DNA of 64,000 bases, taken from Psammoneis japonica. Lineage: Eukaryota. Numbering within the stretch: the first letter of the stretch is position 1; the number at the start of each line of letters is the position of its first letter. Below are positions 10,505 to 56,230 of this stretch, in pieces. Position numbers and translations under genes: made by a program. A model generated the notes under the pieces. It saw only the letters and a program-made list of their open reading frames with translations. It searched no databases and was not told where the DNA came from. The stretch is taken from contig QPGO01000085.1 in the NCBI GenBank assembly GCA_008632985.1, forward strand, positions 248,001 through 312,000, read 5' to 3'.

Positions 10505-11225
10505 AGGAATGACTACGGAAAACAGGGAGAATCAAGCCTCAGTGACAGCAACGTTCATTCGTACTCATTCTGTAACAACATCTCTAGAGATTGAATGAAG
10601 ATCTGGTAGCTCTACCTTAGATACCACCCTGATACCCCGTCTTCAATGGAAAATCTGCGTCGATTTCTAAATCTGCACCTCTGTTGAACGGGGATCTGAA
10701 TCTACACCCAGGAAATGACGCGGATCTCGCCTTGTTGAAAAGTCTGTTGCGGTTGTTGTCTTGCCATGCAGACTGTGATGACAGGAGGGCATGCTGGTAC
10801 ATCGTCTCGAAACGGCGCTTGCTTGTGTGTCGATTTTTTTTTTTAGCTTTGCACAAATTGCAACAGCGCCCCAGAGAGCATGGCTCAGCCCCAGCACATC
10901 TGTGTGCGATCGATGACCCGTCCTTTTCATGTCATTGCACAACTACAGACCTCCCATGTGGGGAGTTGTGTCCTTTCAAAGAAGCTGTGTTTGGTTTGCA
11001 TGTGTTACAAAAGCTGGAAGAGCAGGGGCAAGACAGGGTTCAAAACTGAAAAGTTGGATCCATCAGCAAAAATGAAAGTTGCCAATCAACAAAAGCTCTT
11101 GAGCATCATCAGGTGTGAGATGAGGAACAAGGAGGAGAGTTGAGGGCTCTCATCCAGGAGAGAAAGCCAGCAGTTGAAACAAGCCCTGCTGCACCTGGCT
11201 GGACAAGAGCTGTCCCAGCAATTGG

Positions 11226-11430
11226 TCTGAGACAGGCACTTCACTGCAGATCATGCTGGGCTGAATGCAGAAGCTGCTAAAGTCAGAGCTTGCTCATTTT
11301 TTAATGTGTTGCTTTGGCTGCCTTGAGCAAGTGATCTGAGTCAGGCACTTTACTGCAGATCACACTGGACTGACTGCAAAAGCTGCAAAAGTTAAAGCTT
11401 GCTTGTTTTTCAACTGTGTTGCTTCAGTTG
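11226..11430. repeat. Degenerate ~110-bp tandem duplication
   Basis: ctgagacaggcacttcactgcagatcatgctgg... versus ctgagtcaggcactttactgcagatcacactgg... Confidence 0.8.
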
Positions 11431-14400
11431 CATTGAGCTGCAGCCCAATCATTGTTGAGGCAGAGGTTCTGTCTGAGTTTCCTCCACATGGACTTGGCAT
11501 CCTGACAATCAACTCAAGGTCTTTTGCAAGGCAGCTGATCTTGTGGTCTCACAGCCATGTGGCAAAAAAGCAACAAACTTTCAGGTTGCTTTTTGCAAAA
11601 CACAAGATGCTTTGTTGGTTTGACCGTCATGAAAGCAGCTGATGAAAAAAATGTCACGTGCACTGGGCTGATCAAATCTGGGGCCATTCAACTCAAAAGC
11701 ACTGCACCCACAGTGCCCTCTCCAGGCAATCATGAAACTCTTTTTTAGCTTGGTCTCAAGAAGTGGTCACAGTTGATGGCAGCTTTGCTTGTGCTTCTGC
11801 TGCTGTCAAGCAGTGCCACCGCCATTGGTTGTTGTTTTTGGCACAGATTGCTTGGCTTGCTCAAAGCAAGCACTGCCACTGTGCACACAGCATTGTGGTG
11901 TTTTGGCATGAGTGCATGGAATCAACTTCAACTTGTGCACAACTGAAAATCTCAATGAACTGTCTGGAAAATTGCTGACCTCAAATGTTTCTAAAATTTT
12001 TTTGGCTCAGCCAAGACATCTGCTGGGGAATTTGTGATCCCATCAACTGTTTCTGTGCAGCAATGTCATCACAAGAATGCATTGGTGTAATTTGGAGCAC
12101 ATTTCTCAGCTGCCCTTTTGTTCATGGACTTGCTTGAGCAACAGGAAACAGAGTGAGTTCCAAATGGCAAGCTTTTTTGAGAGCAAAAGCAAAGAGAGCC
12201 AAGTTGGCATTTTTGCGCCTGTGCAGATGCTGCAAAGTTTGACAGCGTGTGACATCAAAGACAAGCACACCAGCTGTTGGAGCACCCAGATTGCTTGAAT
12301 GCAGAGAACCTGGATGTGTTGAAGAGAGAATGTTGAAAATCCTGAAATGGCAGAATTGGCAACTCTTTGTGCCCAGAATTTCATCATCACCAGCCTCACT
12401 CACCCCACAGTTTGTCTCGCTCTTTAGAGGAGTGCAAGTCATCTGGTTCACACAAGCTGCACTGTGGCATCACTGGGTGCCTGATGCATTGTGAGCTTGA
12501 AATTTGTGTCAACAACTTCTAGGCAAACCACAGCTGCCAAAGCAACCAAGGCAAGTGTGACAAGTGGCACAGCCAGGAGGGAGCCTTGCAGGATTGCCAT
12601 TTGGCAACAATGACTTGCTGGTTCAACACCAGCTGGCCAGCAGAAGCTGCTGTGTGAGAAAAGTGGTGCAGCCAGTGACAGCCATCTTGTCTCTTCTCAA
12701 CTCATCATTTTGTGCTTCTGCTGCAATGCAGTGCACTCTCTTGCATGGTTTTTGAGCAGGGCTGTCACATGTGCAGCCTGGCTGCCTTTTGGTGCAGAGA
12801 AGCACACTGTGGGAGGAGGCCTTGCTTTTTGCTTGCGCTGACTCAAGCTGAAGCTCACAAACCCAGTGGCTCTGCTTTGTCACCACATGCTCTTGGTGTG
12901 CACACTGACAGGAGAAGAACCAAAGCTTCCCCCCTTTAAAAAAAGCTTCTTTTTGTTGCTTTTTTAATTTGTGTGATGGCATGATGACTGCACATTTTTT
13001 CAAATGCAGGCACCGGGCCCACAGAGAGCTGACCTTTCTGATGACCTCCTCAGCTCTTGACTTGTGTCACAGAGACTGCCATGTTTGCCAATCATTGTGT
13101 GGCTGCACCCAGCTGAACAAGGCCAGCGACCTGGCTCTTCGAGTGGCAGCAGGTTGCGTGCCATTTCAGGAGCATCAGAGCATGGCAACATTGCAAAGCT
13201 CATCCCCCAAAATCTGAGCCACAAGTGGGAGAGCTCATCAGGAAAAGTGAAAGACACAGTCACAAGGTTTGTCATCATTGCCAAGTGATGACAGTCAAGA
13301 GGAAAACCCCTGTCAGGTGCACTTCAAGGAAGAAATCAAAAAAGTCCAAACAAAGAACCTGGTTGACTTCTCCTCTTGGACAAAGTTGTGCCTGATGAAC
13401 TTGACTGCATCTCCAATTTCCAAGACATTTCTGAGCAGGCCACAGACACAATGCCAGCTGAGAAGGAGGAAAGCTCCACATTTGAGAGGTCAGTTGACAG
13501 CTCAGGCACTGCCTTCTGGCTGCACACACTCTGAAAAATTTGCACAGGACAAACACTCAAGACCATTCCTTTGATGTGGACAAGCAAGACAACAAGCTGT
13601 GGGCTTTGTGGCAAGAAATTGTGCATCCTTCTGCCACATGCTCAACCACATTGCCTGCCAAGATCTGAGCCACACAGCAGCTCCAAGGTGAGCAAGTGTG
13701 TTCTCAATGTTGGTGCATGTGCCAAGGAAAAGAAGAAGAGGAGGGCTTTGGGAAGCAGAGGGCACAGTGGTCATGCTGGCAACAACAACAACAATCATGT
13801 GCGGCCAAGAATCAAGAAGATGGTGCACACCAATTGCAGTGACAAACTCATTGTCAAAATGCTTGGCTCCATGGATCTCCAGTGCAATGACAAGACAAAG
13901 ATTTGCTGCCAAGCTCAGTCCAGCAGCACAGGCTGCTCCGCCCCCAGAGTGAAGTGCAAAGTCCAATGAAGCCTTCATTCAAGTGTGCCAAATGAGCCAA
14001 ATGATGAGTGGCAGAGCCAATGCAGAGCCTGCGGTGGCTGGAGAGCAGTGGTCTTCAAGTTCATTTGAGGCAACAAAGATGGGGGGCTGGCAGACCAGCC
14101 ATCACCACCAAAGCTTTCTTGGAGACACTGAAGAGTTTTGCAAATGCTGTGGCAAAAACAAAGTCACAAAGCCTTTGCCATCTCTTGTCAAGACGCACAC
14201 CAGTTGAAAATGAAGCAGCAGCTGGCCACTGGTCCTGTTGATGACAACTGCCAGACCACCTTTTGTGCCCCACTGCAAAGAGACTCTGCTGACAGTGTTC
14301 AGCACAATCTTGGGGGTGCCACAAATGAGGGAGAAGCAGAGGGGTCCAGTTGGAGTCAAGTTTGGCATGGCAAAGGCAGACATGATGGAAGGGGGAGACA

Positions 14401-14849
14401 AAAAACTCTTTGTGACAGTTGCTGGTGGTGGCCCAAAATGGGGCAATGGGGCAAGAGCAGGGGCAGTGCTTGCTGGCAGCAATGGCAGTTGTTGTGTCCA
14501 GGATCTGTGCCAGACATTGTGGCTTGTTGCACAGTGCCCACAGGAAATGAGCACATTTGCGTGACTGCTGCCATTTGGCAGCAAAGGGTGGTGCACTGCA
14601 GCTGCTGCACAATGCCAAATGCCAGATTGTGTTGCATCAAGTTGTGTCACACACTCTGTTGTGTGTTTTTAAACTGGGATGTGGCTTTTCCTCACTGCCA
14701 GCAAGACAATCATCTGCCTCTGCTGCCTCTTGTGCATGGCAAGAATTGTTGGTGCTGGTCATTGCAAGTCATCTTCCTCCTCCTCCTTCAGAGAGGCAGG
14801 AGCCAAAGGAAAATGCACAGCCTGGAACATGGAAAATGGCAACAAAACA

Positions 14850-15810
14850 AACAAGCCATTGCAGGGGTGACACTGTCAAGAGCCTCAAGGTGACACTTGA
14901 GCCATTGGGTGCTTCCATGTTGCTTTGAGCACACCTTGCAGTGGCCAAACACCAGCTCAGTCAGATTTGGGTCATGGCTGTGTGGGGCAGTGCAGATGAT
15001 GGTGCCCGCCCCATTGGCTTCAATTGCGTCAACAACGGTGCAGCCAGAGTGGTGAGTTGATGCAATGTCAAGCACCACAATGGACTTTGGCTCACTCTTG
15101 CTGTGGTTGCCAAGGAACGGAGCAAGCTTCTCTTCCACCCATGACTCAAACCGTTCCTGACACACAGCTCCAATGGGGGGACTTTTCTCTTCATCTGTGT
15201 TGAGCTGCCCCGCTCAATGACATCACATGCTTCCTTTGCAAAGTTGTTGGTCTCACAAGGAGCAGCAAGCAACAAATTCTGAGTGCATTTGTCTGCTTCA
15301 AAGGATGTCAACCAAGAAACAAGATTTTGCCTCTTTTTGACCATCAACAATGACTCCTTGTGTGCTTCACTTCAATCCTTCCAGTTGGATTCATCCAAGA
15401 ATGTCAGCACACCCAGCTTGTGAGCTGCAGTTTGCAAAGCATTGAGACACCTCTGTCTTCCTTGTCCATTTTGATTGCCTTGTCAGGCATGACTTGGAGT
15501 GAGCACACCACATGCTTTCCAAGTTTCTCTCACACCTGACTTGGACTTCCCTTCTTGTCAGCTGCCTTCTCACTCATTCTTGGCATCAGCTCATCCAAAC
15601 ACAACCCAGGTTCCTCATCTTTAACATTTTTCAAGAGTTTGGTGTGTCATGTCATCCACAAACATGGCATTGATTTTGTCCAGTGTGATGTCTTGTTGTC
15701 CAATCATCAGCCTTTCAGCTGGAGTCTCACAATGCAGAAGAAGATGATGGCTGAAGCACCCCTGACTTTTGGTGTCCCAAGAAAGATGGAGCTTGCACTT
15801 GCTCAGCACT
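14850..15810 (-). pseudogene. Decayed IS630/Tc1-mariner (DDE_3) transposase
   Basis: RFESWVEEKLAPFLGNHSKSEPKSIVVLDIASTHH...IICTAPHSHDPNLTELVFGHCK corresponds to ...VLDNASxH...YxxPYSPDLNPIE..F; upstream PGLCLDEL resembles the PxLYLDEL HTH. Confidence 0.85.
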
Positions 15811-17258
15811 GATGCAGGTTGGAGTGCTTCATTTGTGCACTGGCTTCAACTCAAGCAATGTCTGGACACTCAATCTAATCAGAACAAATGAGATGGCAGC
15901 CAGTTGAAAACTGCGCCTGTTGCAATGACACACTGCTTGCCCAGTCTTCACAGCGTGGGGGCGGGGTTGCTGATTTTTTCCAAGTGCACAGTGGTTTCAC
16001 ATGACACACAAAAGGTGAGTGTCAGACTGCAGGTGTTGCAGGTGAAAAGTGCACAATGGCACAAACAAATCATTTGAACAGGCTTCAGGAATGACAGTGG
16101 CCAACTTCTTGTGAGTCAGTTTTCACCATTTCTTGTTCTTGATGTGCACCCCCACATTGCTTTTTTGTGCTGCAGATTGATGCAAGTGCAGCCACAAAAT
16201 GCCCCTGCACATCTCTGAGGTTTGCTTGGCCCTTGAGAAATGATGCGCCAAATTGCCAAAGAGGCAGCAAGAGTGATGTGATGTGTCATGCTGTGAACGA
16301 AAAAAAAAACAATTTTTTGCACTCCTTGTCTGCGCGCGCACTTGTGTTTTCTGTTTTTCACAGAAGAACAATGCACCGTGCACACTGCACAGTGGCCACC
16401 CACTGACACAAAGCAATGTGAAAGGGGACAAGCATGGTTGAGCAGGAGTGGTGCCTGGTGGTGTGCTCCAGCTCTGGGTGGGACATCCTTGCAGCCACCG
16501 CTGAGCTGTGGTGACATTGACAGTTTTTTGTCCCATGACTTTGGCAGAATTTTGTGCTGTTTGTTTGTGGTGCAATCAACGGGTGATCCACTCAACAGCT
16601 TTTGACACTTTTTTCTTTAGCGCCTTTGTGAAATGTCTTGAGGGTGGTGCAGGGCACGAGAATTTCCAAAAACCTCGACTGTGAATGACAGGTGCAAAGT
16701 GCATTGCAAACTTGGCTGGTCGTTTGTTTGAGTGCCAAAGAGACATGCTGTGTGTGCTGCATTGGCCAGAGAATGAGCTGCAGAGCTTGTGTGCAGAACT
16801 CGGTGTGCCCACGTCACATGGAGTCTGACCTTGGGCAGGAGCACACACATGGCATGCCTTTGTTTTCTTGGCAGCACTTTTTTGTGTGCTGAAAGGAGAG
16901 ACAAAGAAGATGCCTCTCCCAGAGCCAAGTCTCTCTAAGTTGGGAATCATGTGTGGGGCTCTGAGGAAATCAATGTCATCGAAAATCGAGCACAAATTGG
17001 TGTGACATGCACTGTCCCAGAACACAATTGTTGTCTCCGAACCTCTTCGCTCAGAGTGTTGCTCCCTGTTTGCGCCCCCGCCCATCGGCCGTGCCTGCGC
17101 CTGGCTGGCTGCGTGCACCCCTGCGTCAGTGGCACCATGGGATGTGGTTGTGTGTGATGTGTGATGATGTCATCACAGGCATTGAGAAGAGAATGTTCGC
17201 ACCAAGGCAAGTGCACATGCATGCATGAGCAATCTCCTGCATCCCACAGCACCCCTGA

Positions 17259-18587
17259 GGCACGTTCCCACCCTGACAATTTCGGCCGCAAAACAAACAC
17301 AATTTGGCCAAATTTGCGCATTTTCGGGCGTCAGGCTGGGAACGAATTCGATCGGCAAAAAAGATCAAAATCTCATGTCGAGCTCGGTGAGGACACCACT
17401 GTGCAACACTGTTCACACTGCCACTCTCTAGCAGCAGTGGCTCCAGCAGAGCTGCCAGCTAGAGAGACACCACAACATTGTCAGGGACAATCGTTGTCCA
17501 TTTTGCGATTGCTCTGTGGCAACCCAAGACCAATGACAACACCAGTGAAGGTCAGAAGAAATGCGCCAACATTCAATCCTCCATCAATGGCAAGAGTTGC
17601 ACGAGAGAGCAGAAAAAAGCACGAAACATTGGCATGCAGCAAGACTGCAGCATGCAAAACTGTTAAATGAAATTTCCACAGAATGTGAGGTGCCAAAAGA
17701 CACTGTTCTTAAAACTCTTGCGGTTCACCAATGGCCTGAATCCATTTCAAAGAGCAAGAGAAGGGCTGCAGACAATGGAGCAAGGCACTGTGAGGCACAA
17801 TGCCGACAATGTTGTGCAAAACATTGACCCCCCCACCAGCATCATTGTCCCAACATGCGACAAGATTGATGAAATGAGTTCACACAGCCTTCTTCACAGT
17901 CACATTCTATCACAACGGAGCACAAGCCTTGCTGTTGTTGTCGACGTGACCAAAATTCTTGTGTTCTTGACTCTTGACAGTCCATCAAGTGACAACCTCA
18001 AGCATGCACCAAAGAACCACCTCAATGCAACATCAGATCACATGTTGCCATGAAGATTCGGCCTCAAGTCTGCAGACGTGTGGTTTGTGAAGAATCCCAA
18101 CGCAAAATCTGAACAAGAGAAACAAAGACATCAAAAATGCCATCAGTCGACACGGTCGTCATCAGCCACAACAACAATGAAAAATCAAAATTCTGACAAC
18201 TTGATCGCATCAAGCGCAGTGTTGTTAACCTGTCTCCATGTTGTTGCCTTCGTAGACAGGACGGTCGTTCGTGTGTGAACGGGTCCGTTCATGGCAGCAG
18301 CCATCATGGTTGTTGTTGTGCGATCGGAGCGGAGAAAGAAAAATGGAGCTTGTGACGTGGCACGTTCGAGCTCCCAAAACGCCGAATTTACCGTGAAAAT
18401 TGTGTTTGCGGGAGAGAATTTACGACTGCCGACACCTGTCGTCGTAATTTGCTGACGATTGCGGCTGTAAATTGAAGGATGGAAAACAGACGTGCGATTT
18501 TTCTTGTGCGAGACTTTCTGCAGGAATTTTGTGTAGAACGAAATTGTGTTTGTTTTACGGCCGAAATTGTCGGGGTGGGAACGTGCC
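17259..18587. mobile_element. Non-autonomous PIF/Harbinger-like element with ~47-bp TIRs and mutated TAA TSD
   Basis: TIR GGCACGTTCCCACCC[T/C]GACAATTTCGGCCG[C/T]AAAACAAACACAATTT at 17259-17305, inverted at 18541-18587; flanks TGA and CAA; homologous empty site reads TAA (20538-20540, minus strand). Confidence 0.85.
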
Positions 18588-19599
18588 CAAATCTCGAGCC
18601 GCCTCGAAGGGACCCCACCAATTGAGCACTTTTGGTGCTCTGCAGCGCCGCGAAAAAAGCACGCGTCCCAGCAACCTCACCATGATGCTTTCAGAATGTT
18701 CATCCCCTCCCACTTCCGACGAAGAAGCGACCGACGGCACTGATGTTGTTGACCCCACTGCAACAGGTGATGTTGTTGAAATTGCCATCGCAAGCCTGTT
18801 GCTTTCGAAATTATGCCTCATTTGCTGACACTCTGTTTTTTCAGCTCCACCACCTGCCAAAGCTTCTGGCATGAATGACAATGCCGCTTCTGCCTTTCCC
18901 GCATCTGCCACGCCCGAAACGTTTCCTAACCCGACTGGCACAAGAGGCAATGATGTCGCTTTGTCTCTCATTGGCCCCAAACTGACGAAATTGTTTGGCA
19001 CCAACTAACATCATTTTCACGTTGCTGCACAGTGCCTGCCACTCATTCTGTCACCAACACCAACGCAATGACCAATGTTCCAGCGGATGACACCCCCTGT
19101 GCCTTTCCTGCTGTGCCCGGTCCACATCAGGCAATGACACATGTGTCATGCATTGCTGTTGTGCACCAAAAATGCCAACAGCACTGTTGCACTGTCTCAC
19201 GCCATTTTTGCTCATGCTCCACAGTGCATGCCACTGCTTCTGTTGCGAACACCATTGACGCATCGGCTTCCCTTGGCGACTTTGCCACGCCCAATGTTGC
19301 GGCCCAGGTCGGTGTTCCACCCATTGTGTCTGAATCACAGCAGACTTGTGATCCGGAAGACTTGCACTTCCTGTCTCCCGATCCAGTTCCTGCCGCCCAA
19401 TCCCCGACCCGCAACTGGGCGTCTCCTGTGACAGAGTCCCCTGAGAGGCTCGCTCCCGCCACATTGCGCGACATCATTCATGGCTCTGATGGGCGAAAGC
19501 GTCATGCTTCTAAGCTTCGTGATCATCGCAAAACGAAAAAGACCAAGGCCAACACCAAGGTGAAACCAAAGGATGAGCCATGGTTGTGCTGCAGGGAGG

Positions 19600-19830
19600 C
19601 TCTGTGCATTGATTTCCGGCACTGGTCGGAGCCAAGCGACAGCAAGGGGACTGCGGCAAGGACAACACTGCGAGTGCAAACTCCAACAACATCTCGAACA
19701 AGCGATTTGCCACCACCTGCAGGTCGGACCAGCAGATGAGGTCTGGCAGAACATTTGCAAGAAGACTCAATTGAGCTGGACCCAACCGCGGTCTGCCAAC
19801 CATGTGGATGCTTGCCAAAGACGTCGACAG
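19600..19830 (-). pseudogene. RecQ-like SF2 helicase N-terminal fragment
   Basis: LLVRPAGGGKSLV (motif I, PTGGGKS-like) and VPLLSLGSDQ (motif Ia), preceded by PHGWQ (Q-motif-like). Confidence 0.65.
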
Positions 19831-21426
19831 ACACAGTGTCGAAAGCTTGGGAGGCACAGGTCGAAAATGGGTTGTGGCCCGCTGTGGTGCAAGCAGTGGC
19901 ATGCACTGTGGAGCATGAGTGAAAATGGCGTGAGATGGTGCAACAGCACTGTTGGCATTTTTGGCACACAACAGCAATGCATGATGCGTGTGTCATCAAC
20001 TGATGGACCGGGCGCAGCAGGAAAGGCACCGGGGGTGCCATCCGCCGCAGCGTTGGTCATTGCGTTGGTGTTGGTGATGGAACAAGTGGCAGGCGCTGCG
20101 CAGCCACAGAAAAAAGGTGTCAGTTGGTGCCAAACAATTTCGTCAGTGTCAGGCCAATGAGAGACAAAGCAACACAATCACCTGTTGCGCCAGTCGGGTC
20201 AGGAAAGGTTCCGGGTGTGGCAGCTGCGGGAAAGGCAGAAGTGGCGTTGTCATTCATGCCAGAAGCTTCAGCAGGCGGTGGAGCTGAAAAAACAGAGTGT
20301 CAGCAAATGAGGTGTCATTTCGGAAGCAACAGGGCTGCGACGGCAATTTCAACAACGTCACCTGTTGCAGTGGGGCAAATGTCATCAGCACCGTCGGTCA
20401 CTTCTTCATCAGAAGTGGGAGGGGACGAACATTCTGAAAGCATCATGGTGAGGTTGTTGTGCCGCGTGCTTTTTTCGCGGTAAAGAGATGGCTGAAAACT
20501 GGTCAATTGGTGGGGTCCCTTCGAGGCGGCTCGAGATTTAGGGGAGAGCATGGTTCGGGATTTTTCCTGCAACTATCAGCATTTGTGTACAAATGTAATT
20601 GTCTTTACATTTATACAAATATAAAAATGCCATGACGTGAGCATACATCACCATGACATCACCAACCATACTCTCCACTGACGCAGGGGTGGCCTGCGCG
20701 CAGCTGCCAGTCTTGGGCGCCAGAAGCACATGCGGCAATGTTTCATAAGAATCCGGTACTGATTCGTGAAAGCCACGACACGACTGAAGGCAGAAATCGC
20801 CGCAAAACGCAAGTCACACGTCACAAAGTGTCGCTAATGTGTCCTAGAGACATAGATTACGATTAGAATGTGTCTTCTCTACATGAGTTGCGTAGAACGA
20901 AAACTCCTTTCTTCGGAGGAACTTGTGAAGTCAGAAACTGTGCGCACTGACGGTCGAAGTGCATCAGGGGTGTCAAAAGTAGAATTCTACACAGTCAGTA
21001 TGGAGTGAGGCACGAAAACCCCAGCTCAGTGAACCTAACACGTCATTTATTTAGGGCAGATGTCTCGTCACACGCAAGAAGGCTGCCGACGATGCCAAAA
21101 TCGCCCATAAGTGACAAACAGCTGCACCAGCTGACGCAAAATTATGAGCCAATCAAAACACGCCGAACTGAATTTGCGCTGAATGGATGGCCGTCAGCAT
21201 TTTACGATTAACGTGTAGAATCCTACCACGTACGAGACCTATTGCCTATTTATCCGAGTGTTTCTGACACCAGCGAACACTGCCGGAAGTTTCTCCTCTG
21301 CCGTCGTACATTGCTGCGGGAAAATAGTAGGTCGGCCACCTCAGCCACTGAAAGCAGACTGGAAGACACCATTCTGCTCACAAAAAGAGTTGACACATCA
21401 TCCATCACAAATTTCTCCGCAAAACA

Positions 21427-44639: not shown

Positions 44640-44880
44640 CAATGTTGCTTCCTGGGTTGTTGCTGTCTGAGCTGTTGCTTGCTGAGCTTCCTTCTCTGCA
44701 GCACAGTTTGCAAGCCCTGTTGCTTCCTGAGCTGTTGCTTCTTAGTCATCACTTCCTGAGCTGTTGCTTCCTGAACTCCCTTCTTCACAACAAGGTTCAT
44801 GAGCCCTGTTCCTTCCTGAGCTGTTGCTTCCTGAGTCATTGCTTTCTGAGCTGTTTCTTCCTGAAGAGCTGTTGCTGCAG
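44640..44880. repeat. Degenerate minisatellite (ctgagctgttgcttc units)
   Basis: Recurrent ctgagctgttgcttc; minus strand reads as QEATAQE repeats. Confidence 0.8.
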
Positions 44881-47800: not shown

Positions 47801-48699
47801 GGTTGGCAAGAAGCACTGCCACAGCAAAAACACACCATGGGGCTGCTGTTTTGCATCAAAGTGCTGCAACAAAAATTTCTTTACACCACAGCTGTGCAGA
47901 ACCCAGCACACTCTGACGAATGACAAGACATGTGGCCAGATGCATCTGACAAGAGAATTTTGGATTTGACCATCCACAAATGTGTTGGTCATGGGTGTCA
48001 TTTTGTCATGATGCTGAAAAACAAAAACAAGCTCAGGAGTGTGTGTCATGTGCACAGATGTGCTGCCTGCAATGGCCCTCTGGGGAGCACATGCAAGGAG
48101 GCACAGCATGATGATCTTGACAGTGCAAACAGTCATTCCTTGAGCAGCACATGTGAGGTGCATTCAAAAGCTGTGTCACAAAGTCAGGTTGTGAGCTGTG
48201 TGCAGTGAGTCCACATGCAGCTGTGCACAAAATGACCAAGAAAAAGAAGTGTTGCATTGTGCAGAGCATGCTCAACATTGTGGGGGCATGTCAACACAAT
48301 GACCCAAAAAAGAGCAGCTGCATTGTGCAGAGCATGTCCAACACTCTGTGGGGGCATGTCAAATTGGTCAAGTCACCACCAAATTGGCTGACCACACATT
48401 GACTGAGCACACATGTTGTCTCTGACCTCCTCTTAAAGTTTGGCACAAGGGCAGGAGACAGAGAAACAAACTGCACAATGAGCACTGAGGCGCACCAGCA
48501 AAAACAAACTTTCAATGCAAACAGGCATCAGTTTGCCAGCACACAGGGCATCTCACCCACACAAAGAAAAGTGCAAGGAGCACCATTGGCAAAGAAATCT
48601 CTCCAAGAAAGAAGGCACACTCACACATGCATGCAGCATCTGTTGCTTGGATCTTGGGCAAAAAAATGTGCACATGGCAAGCATGCCCAGCAGTCATCT

Positions 48700-49835
48700 G
48701 GTGAGATTGGTTTCATTTCACACTTTTCAAAATTTGCAGGGTTCATCACTTAAATTGCAGGAGTGTGCCAGGTTGCATGGGATGCAATGACAGCACACCA
48801 AGCAGCATGATTTGGCGTTGGCATTGCGGTGCACAATCCTTGTCCACTGACCATGGGAGCACTGTTGACAATGAAGTCAAGAACTCTCTCAACTGACATG
48901 CATGAATGAGAAAAAAATTCACAGCTGAACCTGCAGGCAGCAACCATCCTCTGGCTTTGATGCCAAAAAAGTGCCGCGCAACTTCTTGTGGATCTTCTTG
49001 TGCCGCTGCACAACATTGCACTCCCACCTGTGTTTTGGTGCAGTGTGTGTGGGCACTGGCAGCAGTTTTCAACACAAAGCAGATGCTGTGTTCAAACTCA
49101 ACTAACTTCAAAGGTTTTGTCATCACTTGTGACAGGTTCCAAAGATGCAAAGACAAGTGCCCACCATGTCTTTGCTCCAGATGATTGAAAAGCAGATCAA
49201 GGAAAGTTTTGAAAATGTTCCTTCCTCTCGCATTGTCAAGCCCACCCTCTGACAAGCCATGTGTGTAGGTTGTGAGTCCAAAAAACAGGGTTTTGACCAA
49301 TTTCTGGCACAAAAATCACGTGAAAAATTCATGCAGAACATCTTGTTTGCAGCGCTTTTCCCATGCTTTGTAAAAAAAAACAGATCACAGCCTCAAAGAA
49401 TCAATTTCAGCCACACAACGGCTGACACTTTGCACACTTGCTTTTGACAACAGACATGACAATGTCTGCCATTTGTCAAAATTGCACCATCATTGGAAAA
49501 TGCTTGCTGCAGTGGGCCACAATGACACGTCGATCAAATTTCTGAAAATGGAGTTTTGACATGTTCGTGCACAGAATTGCGCTGCTTGTGCACAAGTCAT
49601 CATGCAAAGTGTCAAGATTGGTTTCCTTTTACACTTTTCAAATTTGGCATTCTCCTTCACTTAAATTGCAGGAGTGTGGCAGGTTGCATGGGGTGCAATG
49701 ACAGCGCATTGAACAGCATGATTTGACATTGGTGTCGCAGTGCATGACGATCCCTTGTCCACTGACTGGCAGAGCACTGTCGATGAACTTCTCGACTCAC
49801 TCGACTGACACGCACGAATGAGAGAAAAATCAACA
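48700..49835. repeat. Two ~220-bp diverged direct repeats (48700-48920, 49612-49835)
   Basis: gattggtttc..acacttttcaaa...cacttaaattgcaggagtgtg.caggttgcatgg...tgtccactgac...gaatgaga.aaaa in both. Confidence 0.8.
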
Positions 49836-49915
49836 GATGCGAACTTGAAACTGGAACATCGAACATCATCACTCTAGTTGGAAACACCATCGACGCATGT
49901 GACACATTTTGTTGC

Positions 49916-50910
49916 ATGTCTTCAACATTGCCACTCCTCCTGACCTCCAAGCAAGCATGTCCCGACGAAACACATCTCAACATGAACCCCACAGAAGTGA
50001 ATCCTCATGGCAGCCAAAAGCATGATTTCGATGCCCTGGACGACATTGAGGATTTCACAGATCAAGTCGCAGATGCATGCCGGTGCGAGAAGGTGCGGGC
50101 TGATGATGTCATGCCCCCGGTGGATCCATCCTTCGTCGGCAGCTGCAACACACAACAGTCGGAACGTGTCTCTTCAAGTTTTCCTGCCAGCAAAAATGTG
50201 ACAGAATCGACCATTTCGGACGATCATCGGCACGATTCCTCTGATCCCACCAGAGTCGGTCCTGCGCAAGATCATGCTTTGCTTGATGCGGATCTCAAGT
50301 GCATTGACAAATCCACCTTCTGCATCGAGCAACAAGGAGAACATTTCGCCCAATTCCTCTTCTCCAAGAGGTTCATCCTGCTGGTCAACAAGTCGAGAGC
50401 ATCGAGGAGCCAAAATTTTCACCGAGCAAAGATGATCGCATCCACGTTGACGGAGAGCCATCAATGAATGACATCATTGTGGGAAGAGGTGGTGGGACCA
50501 ATCTCCATCAAGGCAATGGGAAGCTTCGTGGCATGCTTGTGAACCACAAAGGTGACTGCTCTTGCCTTCGGAAAGAAAAGGGGCAAAAAGAAAAGAAAAC
50601 CGACCTGGGCCACAAGATTGTTGATGAGATCGTAGATGCGACAGGGCCCTTTGTGAAGAAGGAAGCAATCTTTGAGGAAGAACCAACCACCAAGGTGGCA
50701 ACAACAGATGGGTGCTGCCATCTGACAGGACAAAACTTGAAGACGCTGCCGAAAGCAGCCAAGAAGCCTTCCAAGAACAAGTCGGCTAAGAAGAAGATGA
50801 TCACGAAGCCAATCGCCCATCGCTGTTACCTTTTGACGAGATCGGAAGCAAGGAAGAAGGTTTGGCAAGCAATGAGAGACCTGGAAGATCTCAAATGGAC
50901 CACCTGTTGA
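49916..50910 (+). pseudogene. DUF6824-domain gene, disrupted and TpA-depleted
   Basis: NDIIVGRGGGTNLHQGNGKLRGMLV...KKTDLGHKIVDEIV...GPFVKK...EARKKVWQAMRD fits the diatom DxxxGRG...HxGN...KxxQAxRD pattern; break at ~50465. Confidence 0.75.
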
Positions 50911-51442
50911 TGTGGAGTGTGAACGCACAAGCGTCCGAAAGAAAGACTCCTCTGCTTCAGTTTTTGCATTGACGTGCATGACACAACTTGGCAGCAAACA
51001 TTTTTAGACATGTTCACATTTGCATGAAATTTATCCATGTGACCTTCTCCTCTCTTCTGGTTTGCGCTTGAGACGAGACCTTCCCCTGAATCTGTGTCCA
51101 TTCCACGTTTCTCATTGTTTGATTTCAGGCCTTGCGTCTCACATTGAATTGACCTCGCACAACTTGCAGACCTCAAAATGCACGCCAAATTTGATGTGAA
51201 CATTTTAGTTTCATGTTTGGAGAATGGCATGTCGCCAGTCTTCCCTTTTTTCTGCTCATTGCGCACTGTCTCCCTGTGGGGACATGCCGAATGATTTTAG
51301 CCAGTGGCTAAAATTTTGTGTGGACACATGCCAGGTTTGTACGCTGGTGTGTTTTCCACACAGAAAATGTTTGCTGTCCTTTTTACTGACACTGCAAATG
51401 TCACATCTGTGACAGTTTGCTGCTGACCACAACGCTCGTTAA

Positions 51443-54400
51443 CGCCAATCAGGAACAAGCACCACACGTGGTGTTTCAAAAAATTGACACACCACATGTG
51501 GTGTTTCAATTTTTGATTCGGCGATTGTGTCCGATAAAATCAGGTTTAAGCCCCAAGTGACTGCATGAACGAATTCTTCGTACTCGTAAACATGCATTTC
51601 CACTCTTCGATCGTCTCCGTGTGACCTTTAGTCGTTGAGCAGTGCCTGTCGAAAGTGCGGCATTTTCGCGCAATTTTTCCGGCAAAACTGCTTCCACCAT
51701 GACGGATGAAACTGTGTCACCCGACGAGGTAGAACATTCCCTCCCACCACCTCTCTCTCCTGTTGGGATACATAGACAACAGACAAACGTTGCTGACATG
51801 TTGACAGGTGGCATTGATGTTCCCAATTCGCCCCGTGCTTTCGAGGAACAATTTCAACAAATTGCAGCCGGCATCACGGAACAAGAGCAACAAGACGTAC
51901 AAGCCGTTGTGCATCCGCCGCCGGCCAAAAAGTCAAGGAATCGTTTTTCTTATGCAAGGAAGAAGTTCCTTGGTTCCACCAAGTTGTTTGTGAAGCCTCA
52001 GCACCAACAGTTACACTCCAACCAGTTCTTTGAAGCAGTGCAGATTGAGGGCACCACAGTCGGTTGCCCGCGAAAAAAGAATGACTGGAAGTTCACAATC
52101 AAGTGGGATAACCTGTCATCTTTGCCATCAACAATGGACAAGGATCATGCACGCTGCCAGCTGCCAAATGACGTGCACACTCAAAACATGTTAAGAGAAG
52201 CAATGGCATCGTATGACGCCATGGTTTCACCCAGGACGCGCAAGGATGCGCCCGAGTCGACGCGCCAAAACACCACTCCAGTCGCCGCCCAGCCGGTCGC
52301 CGCAACGCCCGCAATGAACACTCCCCCAACAGTGGAGCGTGCTCAACGTGCAGCTGCCTTGAGAACTGCTGATTCCATTGGCTCCACCGCACACAGTCTC
52401 AGCTCAGCAAGCACTGGTGCCAGACAACCCGCTGCCGTAGAAGCAGCAGCAGCGCCACCAACCGCCACGCCAATTTTGCGAAGTGACACTTCTCAATGGG
52501 AATCCGATTCGGATGATGGCTCTGACTATGATCCATTTGACAATGCATGGACTTGGGATCCCAGTGAAGAAGCGACAGACAAGTGCTGCTATGATGACGG
52601 CGAGGAATGTGACAATGATGATGCTGATGATGATGTTGACACTGCTGACGCCACTGACGCTGCCGCCAATGATGTTGAGGATTGTTCTGACTTTGCCAAG
52701 CTGGTTGATAAATTGGTTTGGAAGTTTGCCATTTGTGAGGAAGATGTAGATTTGTTTTCCGATGATGAAGCTTCGCAACCAAATGAACTGCACTCTGGAC
52801 CGCATGGATTGAAACCAGGTGTTGCCACATCCTTCAACACACCCACAGAGGCGGCAGCAGCATGTGGTGGGCTTGACCATTTCTTTGTATCCCGATTGGC
52901 TTGCAACTCTAATGCATGCTTCAACCATTTCACAAAACCCACCCTTGGCAAGAATGGATGGCACCACAGTTTGAAATGGAAACCTGTCACTGCTGACGAA
53001 ATGTGTCATTTCCTTGGAATTGTGCTCATGACATCTTTGTCTCCCAGAGATGCTGGTGGATGCTGTGCCCATTTTGCGGAAGAAGACATTGTGTTGGAAT
53101 CCAGTGCAAGCAGGAATGGAAAGAAGAGACGCATTCCCAATTCAGCTGGCTTCGCACACAAGCACATGGACTTGCGCCGATTCAAGCAGATGCGAGGAGC
53201 CTGCCATCCCGAAGAGAAGGCGGCATCCATGGGTGGTGACAAGTGCCATCAGCTGCGCCAATCCCTCAATCAATTGAATGCAGCTTCGAGGCGCACGTTC
53301 ACACCTGGAACGCATTTGGCCTTTGACGAAGGTGGTGCAAGCTGTCACTCTCGGTTTTGTCCTGTGCAACAGCACAACAAAGACAAGCCTGATGAATGTT
53401 GTGCAGAGTTCTTTATGCTGGCGGATGCAACCAACAAATTTCTCATTCATGTTGACGTTTGTCAAGGCAAGAATGAAACCAACACCTTCATCAACGAAAA
53501 GTGCCACAATCTTCCCACGACACAGAAGGCGGCAGTGAACGCAATCATGCAGTCGGGGCTTCATGCAGCATCCGAGCATGGCTGGAGACATGTGGCACTC
53601 GACAACCGGCACCAATGTCCACAGTTGGCGGCCATTTTGCGGGACAACTGCCACATGCACAGCACAGGAACTGTTCGCACCAATCGCAAGGGTTGGAACT
53701 CCACTGTCATGAACGTTGCGGCCAAGGACAAGCGTGGTTCATTTAAGATGGCTTGTGACAAAGTGAACAAAATGCAGATTCTACAGTGGCGCGACAGCAA
53801 GGTGGTGAATTGCTGCACCTCCCTTGTCTCCACAGAGGTCAGCGAGGTTCAACGTTGAGTCGGAAGTCTCAAATTGACTGTCCCCGTGCCGCGTCTGTTG
53901 AAAACCCACCAAGAAACAATGAGTGCAGTTGACCAATCTGACCAGTCCTGTTTGCATGGTGGTGGCTTCGCAAACAAAGCCCATTTCAAGAAGTGGCACA
54001 AAAGGTGCGACTTGGGAATGAAAGATTTGATGCTTCAGCAAGGGATGGTCGGATGGAAGTTGTCTTGCAAGGAGGTGAAAGACCGGAATGACATGTTGCG
54101 ATGGGAGTTTCTGGTTTGGGTTGCGCAGGACTTCATGGAGTTCAGAAGCGCTGACAGGCTTGTTCCACATCCACCGAGCTTGTTGGCACGTGCTCGTGCA
54201 AGCCGTGCCCAAATTTCAGCGGACGATCAACACAAACCCGTCATGACAACATCGTGTCACGACGTCTGCTCTGTTTGCATGTTGGAGTCGAACTGGAACA
54301 AAAACATTGGCTTGGCGGGAGTGAAGAAGTCAGTGGCAGCCTGCACAAAATGCAGTGTCGTAGCTCACAACTTCGTCCCTCTGGACGACAAGCGACAAAC

Positions 54401-56230
54401 ACACAAACTGCCGGAGTTCGCTGGCATGACATGCTTTGAGATACGACACTCTGAGACAGGCAAGGAAATTTGGAAGATGCATGGCGATGAACGGATGGAT
54501 GAAGAAGGCAGTAAGAAGAGAAGAGCATACTCCATCGTGAGGACGCATCGTGTGGTGCGTCATCTCAAAGAGATGCACAAACAAAATCAAACTGACGAGT
54601 AATGACATAATGTAAATTCGTTTTCATGCTGCAGCATTTTCACAATTGTCTTTTCCTAATGTTGTTAATTCCTGTGGTTCTTTCCTAATGAATAAAAGCC
54701 AATTTTCTGAGAATGGGTGAAGCTCTATTCTTGTTTGAAGCCAACGTACTCGGCTTCGGGAAACCTGAGATGGATTTCGTCGTACATGCATTGAGGAAGG
54801 CGCTTGCGATTGCCTTTTCCAAGGTATCCATTAATAAGTCGGCTGGCCTCTGTGTACAACTTCCACCTGATTTCTCTGTTAGTCTTGTGGAACGTAGCCT
54901 CATACTCGCCAAGGGCAATGAGGTGATCGTTGTGCTCGACGACAACACATGGATCGGAGCCACAATGGACGCATGTCTCCGCATCCGCGTCAGTCTCGTT
55001 ATCATCTTACACAAAAAAAGGAACAGCAGCAACGTGTCAGAAAGATGCTAGTGCAAGCATGGTGCAGCNNNNNNNNNNNNNNNNNNNNNNNNNNNNNNNN
55101 NNNNNNNNNNNNNNNNNNNNNNNNNNNNNNNNNNNNNNNNNNNNNNNNNNNNNNNNNNNNNNNNNNNNNNNNNNNNNNNNNNNNNNNNNNNNNNNNNNNN
55201 NNNNNNNNNNNNNNNNNNNNNNNNNNNNNNNNNNNNNNNNNNNNNNNNNNNNNNNNNNNNNNNNNNNNNNNNNNNNNNNNNNNNNNNNNNNNNNNNNNNN
55301 NNNNNNNNNNNNNNNNNNNNNNNNNNNNNNNNNNNNNNNNNNNNNNNNNNNNNNNNNNNNNNNNNNNNNNNNNNNNNNNNNNNNNNNNNNNNNNNNNNNN
55401 NNNNNNNNNNNNNNNNNNNNNNNNNNNNNNNNNNNNNNNNNNNNNNNNNNNNNNNNNNNNNNNNNNNNNNNNNNNNNNNNNNNNNNNNNNNNNNNNNNNN
55501 NNNNNNNNNNNNNNNNNNNNNNNNNNNNNNNNNNNNNNNNNNNNNNNNNNNNNNNNNNNNNNNNNNNAAGTTTTTTCCACTTTTGCCAAAGCCAGTGGGG
55601 GCTCGTCTTCTTTTGTCTCAGAAGCATAAGGTGCGTCTTTACGAAAAAAGCAAGGGGAACGTGGTTGATGAATGATGCGAGTACAAGTGTAGTGCACAAC
55701 AACAGAAAAAGACACCTGTGAAAAGACTTACCATCATCATAAGTCTTTTCAACTTTCACCTTTTTCAGGGGACGCTCGTCTTCCAGAACATCAATGTGAT
55801 AACTCTTCGGTTCGTCTGATGTCAAAAAAGCAAAGGCAGCGGAGCATGAGAACAAAACAATCATGCAACACGCTGTTGTAACGGAATGCTTGTTGCTGCT
55901 CGAAACGGGGTATACAGCAAAAAAGAAACACTTACCAGCTCCATAAGTCCTCGGGATATTTTCCTTATTGTTGTAAGACATTGTATTGCAGGGAAATACA
56001 GTTGCTAGCGATTGCAAAGCATGAAAAAAAATGACAACAACACTTGCAACTCGCTGCCGCCTCTTGGAGGGAGTGATGTTACGTACAGGTTACCCGCGAA
56101 ATCTTGAGCTTATTTCGATTCACGAGCGGCTTAAAAGTTAGTCACGAAACCAAATATGGTGGTTCAATTTTTGGCCCAACTCCAAATATGGTGTTTAAAA
56201 TATCTTAAAACGGGTTGTTTCCGATTGGCG
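51443..56230 (+). mobile_element. piggyBac-superfamily transposon with TTAA TSD
   Basis: TTAA|CGCCAATCAGGAACAA ... TTGTTTCCGATTGGCG|TTAA; paired subterminal accaNNNNtggtg motifs at both ends; contains a gap. Confidence 0.9.
51699..54602 (+). pseudogene. piggyBac-like (DDE_Tnp_1_7) transposase with one in-frame TGA (53856-53858)
   Basis: LAFDEGG, NKDKP, VALDNRH, STGTVRTNR, QWRDSKVV, MSAVDQSDQ, KKWHKR, C-terminal CSVC...CTKC...CF Cys-rich domain; the two ORFs share one frame. Confidence 0.92.

Follow-up and report, generated by a model that had tools for sequence, protein, structure and literature searches.

The window analyzed here is a stretch of 64,000 nucleotides from Psammoneis japonica (contig QPGO01000085.1, numbered from the first nucleotide of the stretch), and it contains N gaps. 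Its features are as follows.

10705..20545, no strand: TpA-erased domain 1, with a CpG-poor core (~10920-16200) and a CpG-retaining part (~17000-20545), delimited by counts per 250 bp, edges, and observed/expected values
14791..15213, minus: remnant of a Tc1/mariner-type DDE transposase in the domain 1 core (Pfam DDE_3, E=1.4e-5; the score, 25.4 bits, falls short of the curated cut-off, 28.6)
17247..20718, no strand: high-copy repeat families, here a TpA-erased copy with CpG kept (summed contig depth 319-2297 vs ~62 in the flanks)
18586..19239, plus: left arm (654 bp) of an inverted repeat, 86% identical to the right arm
19891..20542, minus: right inverted-repeat arm, with its outer end at the right edge of domain 1
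32813..33062, plus: unmutated copy of a direct repeat, comprising the 3′ end of a GT61 gene and downstream sequence (self-BLAST, 76% identity; alignment)
33260..36251, no strand: TpA-erased, CpG-poor domain 2, without recognizable coding content
36020..36296, plus: second copy of the direct repeat, mutated to ~36250 and unmutated beyond
41330..42262, minus: SIR2-family gene adjacent to domain 3, apparently intact (Pfam SIR2, E=1.2e-13; first Met at 42262)
42230..54510, no strand: TpA-erased domain 3, with a CpG-poor core (~42450-49500) and a CpG-retaining part (~49750-54510)
50308..50907, plus: ORF with a DUF6824 domain in the CpG-retaining part of domain 3 (Pfam E=2.5e-9)
51639..53858, plus: hypermutated piggyBac-type transposase, an open frame of 739 codons (Pfam DDE_Tnp_1_7, E=5.7e-30)

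The targets that could be identified within the domains are DNA transposons (piggyBac and Tc1/mariner), and the cores have no recognizable genes: none of the 17 ORFs of at least 85 aa scanned in domain 2 had a Pfam match, and a Pfam scan of the ORFs in the domain cores found no viral hallmark gene. The TpA-poor zone of domain 3 begins ~35 bp within the 5′ end of the SIR2 gene and spans the region upstream of this gene.

Extent of the TpA depletion

The TpA depletion is real. In 1-kb windows, TpA observed/expected was 0.00-0.15 from 11 to 20 kb, 0.01-0.06 from 34 to 36 kb, and 0.03-0.08 from 43 to 51 kb, as compared with 0.43-0.97 in most windows of the flanks. By sub-domain, the values were 0.04 (11.0-16.2 kb), 0.09 (17.0-20.5 kb), 0.04 (33.25-36.25 kb), 0.04 (42.5-49.5 kb), and 0.13 (49.75-54.5 kb), against 0.56-0.73 in five flank blocks, and the Poisson probability of finding TA counts this low if the rate were that of the flanks ranged over the sub-domains from 1e-42 to 3e-99. 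These values bear out the three TpA-poor, TG/CA-rich domains with normal flanks described in a first-pass annotation of this DNA. Its TA-free interval, 12967-14669, is exact by position count: no TA occurs from 12965 to 14670 (1705 bp), where 104 would be expected from base composition and 73 from the flank frequency. Domain 1 has its edges at ~10.7 and ~20.55 kb, domain 2 at ~33.26 and ~36.25 kb, and domain 3 at ~42.23 and ~54.5 kb. The third domain thus ends ~0.5 kb short of the 55060 given there, which marks only the start of an N run.

TG and CA reached observed/expected values of 1.47-1.96 in erased regions vs 1.14-1.21 in the flanks, with TG about as abundant as CA within the erased sub-domains, and ApA was not depleted (1.14-1.29 vs 1.06-1.16). 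Missing TA+CG and excess TG+CA were roughly balanced in the five sub-domains (472/438, 163/208, 248/213, 623/643, and 219/234), as would result if sequence like that of the flanks had been converted.

K-mer contigs built from a public run match the window over 9001-12326 except for 1 difference and over 12513-17145 except for 5, at a depth of 62.6-66.7 over 9001-17145 as compared with 59.8 for a right-flank contig. The erased 11-17 kb have read support, but the first-pass annotation had asked for independent raw reads. This run is the only one containing the stretch, and because the assembly itself may have been made from it, the support is not independent.

Direction, context, and confinement of the changes

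Paired copies reveal what was changed into what. The identity of the inverted-repeat arms rises from 86% to 95.9% upon purine/pyrimidine recoding, and their alignment holds 13 CA/TG pairs, 3 of TA with TG or CA, and 0 TA/TA, along with 19 CG/CG and 19 of CG with TG or CA, corresponding to a loss of ~94% of TA and ~33% of CG per arm since duplication; TA is frequent again from 20574, beyond the right edge of domain 1. The direct-repeat pair reaches 95.8% identity with the same recoding. Its right copy differs from the left by CG→TG/CA and TA→TG/CA, and shared TAs are kept after 36252; as the right copy is mutated only to ~36250, the edge of domain 2 falls inside the repeat unit. CA/TG double differences made up 34 of 313 mismatches in six repeat pairs touching the domains and 4 of 429 in three flank paralogue pairs. 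Among the 40 differences listed between the window and read contigs (there are 302 more), 15 had TG/CA in the window vs TA in the contig and 2 were the reverse.

Scored against 17 homologues, the piggyBac frame keeps 131 of 166 conserved columns overall and none of 8 conserved Tyr, which became His (4, CAY), Cys (3, TGY), or Lys (1). Conserved Ile was kept at 3 of 8 positions, the others having Met, Met, Thr, Val, and Leu, and Tyr accounts for 0.5% of the whole frame, with none in the last 352 residues.

The sequence context was tabulated in related metagenomic elements, not in the window sequence itself, by comparing one of them (L022) with the consensus of three TA-keeping copies over 645 sites, strand-folded to A→G. 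Transitions affected 26 of 54 A preceded by T, 1 of 104 preceded by A, and 1 of 78 preceded by G, and the apparent rate after C was 13/118, a figure that requires CpG decay in the reference lineage to be assumed as well. None of the 27 TA dinucleotides was kept in L022 (18 TG, 8 CA, and 1 TT), and a control copy kept 27 of 28. The copy-versus-consensus spectrum suggested in the first-pass annotation therefore has, in this metagenomic element, the excess of A→G in TpA over ApA and GpA, and its argument against a general WA mutator holds because ApA is spared. The direction that it had read, TA→TG or TA→CA on either strand, is upheld by the Tyr losses, arm differences, sister copies, and L022, and both the sister copies and the repeat arms agree with its view that the depletion arose by mutation and not from ancestral composition.

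A changed A was followed by C in 15 of 40 cases vs 4 of 40 for A not changed, a weak hint, and no strand-coordinated runs of changes were found in the domains. TA is its own complement, so a mixture of TA→CA and TA→TG could stem from T→C just as from A→G; the sequence by itself does not tell A→G on a given strand apart from T→C on its opposite.

Loss of CpG is a separate process. CpG observed/expected was 0.08, 0.24, and 0.12 in the cores (11.0-16.2, 33.25-36.25, and 42.5-49.5 kb) but 0.70-0.72 at 17.0-20.5 and 49.75-54.5 kb, although TA is erased there. TpA depletion reaches 140-220 bp beyond CpG depletion at three edges, and TA is normal in 14 CpG-poor metagenomic loci. The two losses are thus dissociated in both directions, against the earlier claim that TpA was erased together with CpG; its description of the domains as CpG-poor applies to the cores and not to the two CpG-retaining sub-domains.

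The changes are also regionally confined. The 11-17 kb region is at single-copy read depth, purine/pyrimidine-recoded self-comparison of the window found no hidden copies among the cores, and at 15 of the listed sites with TG or CA in the window, other copies of the high-copy families at 17.2-20.7 kb have TA. With these results and the edge inside the direct repeat, the earlier term repeat-targeted is left unsupported, and targeting looks regional, not family-wide or repeat-dependent.

Relation to known systems

Mutation-accumulation lines of Bigelowiella natans show the same mutational signature. For this species, a preprint reports that integrated DNA of giant viruses and virophages undergoes localized hypermutation of TpA to TpG/CpA and proposes a DNA adenine deaminase, with an ADAT2-like candidate (Mettrop et al., bioRxiv 10.64898/2026.01.13.699255). 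By the cluster criteria of that preprint (a Rho of at most 0.43 for TpA and of at least 1.52 for CpA+TpG in at least 3 consecutive 1-kb windows), three clusters are present in our window, comprising 7, 3, and 7 of the 1-kb windows. In that preprint, too, all changes are A→G/T→C at TpA, they affect both strands and discrete regions, a single-copy region can be a target, and TpA-poor, CpA+TpG-rich 1-kb clusters are enriched in DDE and reverse-transcriptase domains and unannotatable ORFs. The preprint describes a chlorarachniophyte (rhizarian) and not a diatom (stramenopile), a Rho of 0.45 in the active NCLDV region as compared with near-complete erasure here (0.04-0.13), giant-virus and virophage targets where we find DNA transposons and no viral gene, and mutation-accumulation lines where we have sequence traces. 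CpG decay accompanies the cores here, whereas CpG has 0 occurrences in the preprint text. Our literature search found no report of TpA-erasing hypermutation for diatoms, as the first-pass annotation had supposed, but the signature itself was already known from B. natans.

As in the diatom domains, RIP in ascomycete fungi is hypermutation by transitions in a specific context; transposons are disabled by it, and the resulting dinucleotide signature has sharp domain edges. However, RIP creates TpA because it runs C→T, mostly CpA→TpA, lowering GC and making stop codons, whereas the diatom domains lose TpA, keep their GC, and acquire no in-frame stops; RIP also requires duplicated sequence and a sexual phase, and repeat dependence was not seen here. 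Methylation of transposable elements is reportedly present in diatoms (compare the Cyclotella cryptica methylome), and CpG→TpG/CpA decay by 5mC deamination matches the CpG loss of the three cores and the modest, graded loss in the inverted repeat (~33% per arm) but leaves the TpA loss, dissociated from it both ways, unexplained. APOBEC3 (C→U, DNA) and ADAR (A→I, RNA) of animals likewise make deaminase-type, context-dependent transitions in parasitic nucleic acids, but they act on another base or substrate, with marks that are strand-asymmetric and often clustered, while the diatom domains are affected on both strands. The tRNA adenosine deaminases (TadA/ADAT2) have U33-A34 as substrate, the bacterial site being U-A-C, and a T-A preference would mirror it. 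TadA/ADAT2 and TadA-derived adenine base editors deaminate A after U/T, comparable to the T-A target and weak 3′ C preference here; natural enzymes act on tRNA, with DNA activity reported for only a few (cited in bioRxiv 10.64898/2026.01.13.699255), and a deaminase in the diatom is a candidate only.

Proposed explanation and its rivals

We consider it probable (about 0.75, the observed part included) that the window records region-confined TpA→TG/CA hypermutation of the same kind as in B. natans. Three islands of transposon-derived, mostly unrecognizable DNA would have been hit by DNA-level transition hypermutation at 5′-TA-3′, converting TA to TG or CA (A:T→G:C at TpA, either strand) nearly to completion, and a second, slower process, CpG→TpG/CpA decay as expected of methylated-cytosine deamination, would have emptied the older cores. 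The pattern fits the DNA-level A:T→G:C mutator, within discrete domains carrying transposon remnants, proposed in the first-pass annotation. The agent may be an enzyme that deaminates adenine in DNA (to inosine, which is read as G), addressed to silenced chromatin with a putative role in genome defense; for the deaminase step alone we see even odds.

The altered base could instead be the thymine 5′ of A, modified (e.g., by hydroxymethylation) or damaged and miscopied as C, which accounts equally well for TA→CA plus TA→TG, and several protist lineages have thymine-modifying enzymes. We regard this as unlikely, as we know of no thymine modification that yields efficient T→C transitions, and the 3′ C at changed A is a weak hint toward the T-A-C context of tRNA adenosine deaminases. 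Still less probable is error-prone repair drawn by T:G mismatches of 5mC deamination and mutating nearby A:T, another suggestion of the first-pass annotation: the cores are short of both CpG and TpA, and WA motifs are sites of A→G errors by polymerase eta, but ApA is neither mutated in L022 at the TpA rate nor lowered in observed/expected, and this kind of repair is disfavored because TpA and CpG losses are separable, in the two CpG-retaining sub-domains, at the three edges, and in CpG-poor loci of other organisms that keep TA.

An artefact of assembly, polishing, or sequencing chemistry in hard-to-map DNA could be imagined given the N gaps and the single run, but it is very improbable in light of the k-mer reassembly, which has 6 differences over 11-17 kb and a depth there like that of the flanks, and of the open 739-codon frame, whose chance at the local stop frequency is 7e-11. 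In addition, the same signature with sharp edges is present in other metagenome assemblies, the TpA-free part of one locus being identical in two of them, and Tyr is almost absent from 8 of the 150 homologue representatives. Scarcely credible, in our view, is foreign or ancient DNA natively avoiding TA and CG, or selection against TA, even though the cores lack recognizable genes and piggyBac and Tc1/mariner transposons insert at TTAA or TA; this reading is mainly refuted by the arms that diverged independently after duplication, His or Cys in place of conserved tyrosines, TA in sister copies, and the L022 table, and the mass balance also speaks for conversion. Equally hard to credit is ADAR-like A-to-I RNA editing followed by reverse transcription and reintegration. 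ADAR does prefer a 5′ U (Discussion, bioRxiv 10.64898/2026.01.13.699255), but both strands of one element were hit (Tyr→Cys 3, Tyr→His 4; TG about equal to CA), the recognizable targets are DNA transposons, and the erased zone extends into the region upstream of a gene and covers some of a gene tail that was duplicated.

Regional TpA hypermutation could be an ancient process in this species that is now inactive. If it served defense, missense changes such as Tyr→Cys/His would ruin the transposase proteins, and no stop codons would be created. So far, the signature has been reported only in one unrelated alga, B. natans.

Extent, composition and read support of the erased domains

In 1-kb windows, TpA observed/expected ratios were 0.00-0.15 at 11-20 kb, 0.01-0.06 at 34-36 kb and 0.03-0.08 at 43-51 kb, compared with 0.43-0.97 in most flank windows, and the Poisson probabilities of so low a TA count at the flank rate ranged from 1e-42 to 3e-99 across the sub-domains. 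These counts and tests bear out the near-total loss of TpA in three domains reported by the first-pass annotation, including its by-eye stretch without TA at 12967-14669, where about 100 were expected; exact counting gave none in 12965-14670 (1705 bp), where base composition predicts 104. The claimed enrichment of TG and CA in the domains beside normal flanks was also recovered, at observed/expected ratios of 1.47-1.96 versus 1.14-1.21. ApA observed/expected was not reduced in the domains, and GC was 0.46-0.52 versus 0.45-0.48 in the flanks.

Table. Observed/expected dinucleotide ratios in sub-domains and flanks
Region; TpA; CpG
11.0-16.2 kb; 0.04; 0.08
17.0-20.5 kb; 0.09; 0.70
33.25-36.25 kb; 0.04; 0.24
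42.5-49.5 kb; 0.04; 0.12
49.75-54.5 kb; 0.13; 0.72
Five flank blocks; 0.56-0.73; 0.97-1.03

The edges are sharp and could be located to within a few tens to ~200 bp: TA is scarce past ~10705 and frequent again from 20574 (domain 1), scarce over 33271-36252 (domain 2), and scarce from 42228 to ~54500 (domain 3); the end at 55060 first assigned to the third domain is the start of an N run. The domains had also been described as CpG-poor, which holds for three cores (0.08, 0.24 and 0.12) and fails for 17.0-20.5 and 49.75-54.5 kb, where CpG is nearly normal (0.70 and 0.72). At three of the four edges of CpG-poor cores, TpA depletion overhangs CpG depletion by 140-220 bp (10705-10920, 36112-36252 and 42228-42447), a length of roughly one nucleosome. 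GpC rises to 1.39-1.46 and ApT falls to 0.71-0.73 in the two largest cores, at 11.0-16.2 and 42.5-49.5 kb. The opposite extreme is found in intergenic TA-rich blocks at 23751-24000 and 30001-31250, with 34 TA in 250 bp and a TpA ratio of 1.22 over 1 kb, the latter block containing a 50-bp tandem duplication (30313-30412).

One public sequencing run contains the stretch, and its k-mer contigs span 9001-12326 with one difference and 12513-17145 with five, at a depth of 62.6-66.7 over 9001-17145 versus 59.8 for the right-flank contig (from 20664). Reads thus contain the erased sequence at single-copy depth, and it is not a product of consensus or polishing, although the run is possibly the assembly's own data. 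The six differences between assembly and read contigs in the single-copy core lie at 11351, 12520, 12885, 14194, 17097 and 17114, and five of them fall on TA/CA, TA/TG, CG/CA or CG/TG steps, versus none in the 3.3 kb of covered flank; the numbers are small, but alleles may differ here or recent changes may have hit these same kinds of step. At 17.2-20.7 kb the summed contig depth was 319-2297, indicating members of high-copy families. Two other runs (X2 and X3) added almost no coverage of the stretch, and no RNA run was listed as containing it.

Direction and sequence context of the changes

The TpA depletion is the result of mutation and not of ancestral composition, as four concordant lines of evidence indicate: mass balance, a transposase frame, repeat pairs and sister copies. 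All four support the mutational origin and the direction, TA to TG or CA, proposed in the first-pass annotation. Conversion of TA and CG to TG or CA in flank-like DNA predicts a TG+CA excess as large as the TA+CG deficit. In the five sub-domains, deficit and excess were 472/438, 163/208, 248/213, 623/643 and 219/234, and TG and CA were roughly balanced.

The second line comes from one of two recognizable transposase sequences.

51639-53858: piggyBac transposase frame (Pfam DDE_Tnp_1_7, E=5.7e-30)
14791-15213: Tc1/mariner-type DDE_3 remnant (Pfam E=1.4e-5, weak, below the curated cut-off)

The last 352 residues of the piggyBac frame found 674 homologues at E<=0.001 in a full HMMER search, and in a PDB sequence search the solved piggyBac transposase 6x67 was a weak match (E=0.039); protein word searches with the whole frame and with a GT61 ORF gave no matches. 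Against 17 of its best homologues the frame retains 131 of 166 conserved columns and none of eight conserved tyrosines, four of which became His (CAY), three Cys (TGY) and one Lys. Conserved isoleucine is kept at three of eight positions (replaced by Met, Met, Thr, Val and Leu) and arginine at 12 of 16 (replaced by Trp, His, Gln and Cys), and these replacements are the codon changes predicted by TA->TG/CA together with CG->TG/CA. Between candidate ends of the element, no significant inverted repeat was found after purine/pyrimidine recoding, and TTAA itself would have been erased.

The arms of an inverted repeat (18586-19239 and 19891-20542; 654 bp) are 86% identical, rising to 95.9% after purine/pyrimidine recoding, and their pyrimidine-purine steps comprise 13 CA/TG, 3 TA/(TG or CA), 0 TA/TA, 19 CG/CG and 19 CG/(TG or CA). 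A CA/TG double difference arises when the two copies of an ancestral TA or CG are hit independently. The CpG classes give a CpG loss of about one-third (~33%) per arm, which accounts for only ~2 of the 13 CA/TG sites; the others imply ~24 ancestral TA in 654 bp, close to flank density and equal to a TA loss of ~94% per arm. In the six repeat pairs that touch the domains, CA/TG sites numbered 34 among 313 mismatches, versus 4 among 429 in three flank paralogue pairs. The unmutated flank controls include paralogous ARM-repeat ORFs (39017-39851 and 58655-59472; 65% DNA identity) and adjacent TPR_12 genes (21394-23649 and 24426-26804).

For sister copies, the window was compared with read contigs, and the 40 best supported of the differences were classified, 302 further ones falling outside this set, with adjacent positions counted singly.

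Table. States at the 40 best-supported differences between window and sister-copy contigs
Window; contig; number
TG or CA; TA; 15
TG or CA; CG; 9
TA; CA; 2
CG; TG or CA; 2
Other states; 12

Context specificity was measured on a metagenomic relative and not on the window itself. A metagenome scan with a six-row piggyBac alignment (a 19-row version was dropped as too diverse) matched 41 loci. In most of the 27 loci with 39-50% GC over the match (L001-L027), TpA over the transposase was 0.45-0.74, and it was 0.00 in L022 and L027 and 0.14 in L021; in the flank of L025, a 2.3-kb TpA-free, CpG-poor block has an abrupt edge. These microbial-mat blocks are sharply bounded beside normal DNA, and some are CpG-poor too.

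TpA-free blocks in microbial-mat metagenome contigs
L025: 6251-8552
L022: 1-800
L027: 1-520
L021: 703-1461

L022 and L027 are one locus from two separate assemblies, identical throughout the stretch without TpA, which makes up the first 570 of the 1100 columns aligned. L022 is 86-87% identical to three TA-keeping copies (L011, L010 and L024), whose consensus served as reference over 645 strand-folded sites.

Table. Transitions per opportunity in the metagenomic element L022, changed base in brackets
T[A]; 26 / 54
A[A]; 1 / 104
G[A]; 1 / 78
C[A]; 13 / 118
[C]G; 8 / 41

The copy-versus-consensus test suggested in the first-pass annotation came out strongly in favor of its proposal, with T[A] at 26/54 against A[A] at 1/104 and G[A] at 1/78 in this element. 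We read the 13/118 at C[A] as CpG decay in the reference lineage. None of 27 TA dinucleotides survived in L022 (18 became TG, 8 CA and 1 TT), compared with 27 of 28 in a control copy, and the rate at TpA, ~40-fold that at ApA/GpA, is a rough lower bound, as the sites are saturated. Two wider context effects are weak hints: the A that changed has a 3' C in 15 of 40 cases versus 4 of 40 for the unchanged A on the opposite strand (window domains, L022 versus consensus), and surviving TAs (n=100) have a 5' T in 49% versus 22% and a 3' A in 45% versus 21%. No strand-coordinated runs of TG versus CA were seen; the patterns alternate, with a dispersion of 1.65 in domains versus 1.38 in flanks.

Targeting and competing mechanisms

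The first-pass annotation had TpA lost together with CpG, and the two turned out to dissociate both ways. TpA is erased with CpG kept at 17.0-20.5 and 49.75-54.5 kb, and the reverse is found in 14 further metagenome loci (L028-L041) from CpG-poor genomes, where CpG is 0.00-0.24 over the match and TA, at 0.49-0.73, overlaps the TA-retaining copies, so that CpG loss alone occurs without TA removal. CpG loss to TpG/CpA, as in 5mC-driven decay, is seen in the three cores (0.08, 0.24 and 0.12) and in the 19 CG/(TG or CA) sites between the inverted-repeat arms. Per arm, a TA loss of ~94%, a CpG loss of ~33% and a background divergence of ~3% (41 other mismatches in 654 columns) make TpA conversion the fastest process, and the parts that keep CpG probably inserted more recently into islands that were already old, an order suggested by these losses.

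Recognizable content in the domains is sparse (the piggyBac frame, the weak DDE_3 remnant, a DUF6824 ORF and high-copy repeats), and most of the cores could not be assigned. A Pfam scan of 134 ORFs of at least 85 aa from the three domains (176 ORFs of at least 75 aa were listed) found only the weak DDE_3, DUF6824 and two near-threshold matches at chance level, with no capsid, polymerase, integrase or reverse transcriptase and no viral hallmark.

Targeting looks regional and not repeat-dependent, because 11-17 kb is at single-copy depth, purine/pyrimidine-recoded self-comparison revealed no new hidden repeats between cores, and sister copies of repeated families keep TA, both in read contigs and among the relatives of L022. 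In addition, only the right copy of a direct repeat (32813-33062 and 36020-36296) is mutated, up to 36250, with TAs intact in both copies beyond, and a TpA-poor zone covers the upstream region of a seemingly intact SIR2 gene, starting ~35 bp within its 5' end. The label "repeat-targeted" attached to the pattern earlier needs correction. The domain ends are not linked by terminal inverted repeats, all scores falling below shuffled maxima. At 18587, several read contigs end their match and continue into differing TA-containing sequences, marking the terminus of a high-copy element, and 17259-17305 is a 47-bp inverted copy of 18541-18587. Between domains 1 and 2, a proteasome regulatory ATPase gene of the Rpt5/6A type (28314-29933) is broken by a 153-N gap (28830-28982); its fragment at 28983-29933 shares 93-95% identity with many proteins of diatoms, including Fistulifera, Seminavis, Nitzschia, Pseudo-nitzschia and Attheya, and its organism-named matches are all diatom except Brassica cretica (rank 1, partial: 77% identity over 78% of the query). 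These matches place the window in a diatom; a protein atlas search with the SIR2 ORF was uninformative about taxonomy.

Several known mutators were weighed against this pattern. Fungal RIP changes C to T at CpA, creating TpA and enriching AT, which is the opposite of the direction found here, at a GC of 0.46-0.52 versus 0.45-0.48 in flanks; a RIP-like dependence on duplication also disagrees with the single-copy 11-17 kb, the unmutated sister copies and the lack of hidden repeats. ADAR-type hypermutation would act through an RNA intermediate on one transcribed strand, but a single DNA transposon carries changes on both strands, and TG and CA occur in about equal amounts. Mutagenesis by polymerase eta at WA motifs should also change A to G at ApA, yet A[A] was 1/104 and ApA observed/expected is not lowered. 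Biased gene conversion would favor all W-to-S changes and raise GC, but here A[A] and G[A] are spared and GC stays the same.

By sequence comparison we show a process acting on DNA, on both strands and specifically at TpA, converting A:T to G:C within confined regions. Adenine would be deaminated to inosine by a TadA/ADAT2-like enzyme, which may be addressed through silent chromatin and may serve in defense. The deaminase idea of the first-pass annotation is reasonable, its TpA-specific direction agreeing with the data and the enzyme itself staying a candidate. The natural substrate of TadA/ADAT2-type enzymes is A34 following the invariant U33, which would account for the T-A rule, and TadA prefers a T-A-C context.

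Relation to Bigelowiella natans and biological meaning

The only account of such a TpA process that literature searches turned up is a 2026 preprint on the chlorarachniophyte Bigelowiella natans (10.64898/2026.01.13.699255), and the process is already on record there. In two integrated viral regions, 230 of 231 mutations were A->G or T->C transitions, each of the 230 lying at TpA, and mutation-accumulation lines gave a rate there of ~6e-7 per site per generation versus 3.5e-10 elsewhere, ~1000-fold; the genome has 124 clusters of windows poor in TpA and rich in CpA+TpG, in which DDE and reverse-transcriptase domains are overrepresented, and an ADAT2-like candidate deaminase was named. The preprint text mentions neither diatoms nor CpG (10.64898/2026.01.13.699255). 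By the same cluster thresholds, the diatom sequence holds three clusters, at 11-18 kb (7 windows), 33-36 kb (3 windows) and 43-50 kb (7 windows). As in B. natans, the changes are almost exclusively A->G or T->C at TpA (T[A] 26/54 in the metagenomic element L022; His or Cys in place of Tyr at 7 of the 8 conserved columns; arms with 0 TA/TA and 13 CA/TG) and confined to discrete regions (0.04-0.13 versus 0.56-0.73 in flanks) within normal surroundings. The targets in B. natans are foreign or selfish DNA; here the identifiable ones are piggyBac and a weak DDE_3, with no viral hallmark among 134 ORFs and most of the core sequence unassigned. The diatom islands belong to the kind of system reported in 2026 for this one chlorarachniophyte.

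Conversion of TA to TG or CA removes TAA and TAG and never creates an in-frame stop; the cores at 11.0-16.2 and 42.5-49.5 kb contain 13 and 17 TAA+TAG versus 131 and 166 TGA. This explains the 739-codon open frame of the piggyBac element (chance 7e-11 at the local stop frequency) and the many long, empty ORFs of the domains.

Long open frames in the domains
51639-53858
14132-14893
45336-46145

Dead transposons thus persist as long, Tyr-free "ghost" ORFs, a trap for annotation, and 8 among the 150 piggyBac homologue representatives listed from public protein data look like this, with <1.2% Tyr and raised Cys+His. Tc1/mariner and piggyBac elements insert at TA or TTAA, and since both identifiable transposon types do so, erased islands would lose such sites, although the importance of this is speculative.

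A broader reading, which we hold tentatively at a probability of roughly 0.3, is that an old DNA adenine-deaminase defense, derived from the tRNA deaminase ADAT2/TadA and addressed through chromatin, is common to diatoms and chlorarachniophytes. In diatoms it would run to completion, replacing all TpA in a silenced island by TpG or CpA to about one nucleosome past the methylated core and disabling transposases without stops, with TA/TTAA insertion sites for Tc1/mariner and piggyBac lost as a by-product. 

The enzyme should be findable by comparison, among genes common to signature-bearing species and missing from signature-free ones, and genetic manipulation is feasible in some diatoms. On the islands, CpG decay and the regional erasure of TpA form separate layers, and TpA-specific A:T->G:C hypermutation, known from a single preprint on one chlorarachniophyte, has in the diatom end-state a second and ecologically dominant lineage.
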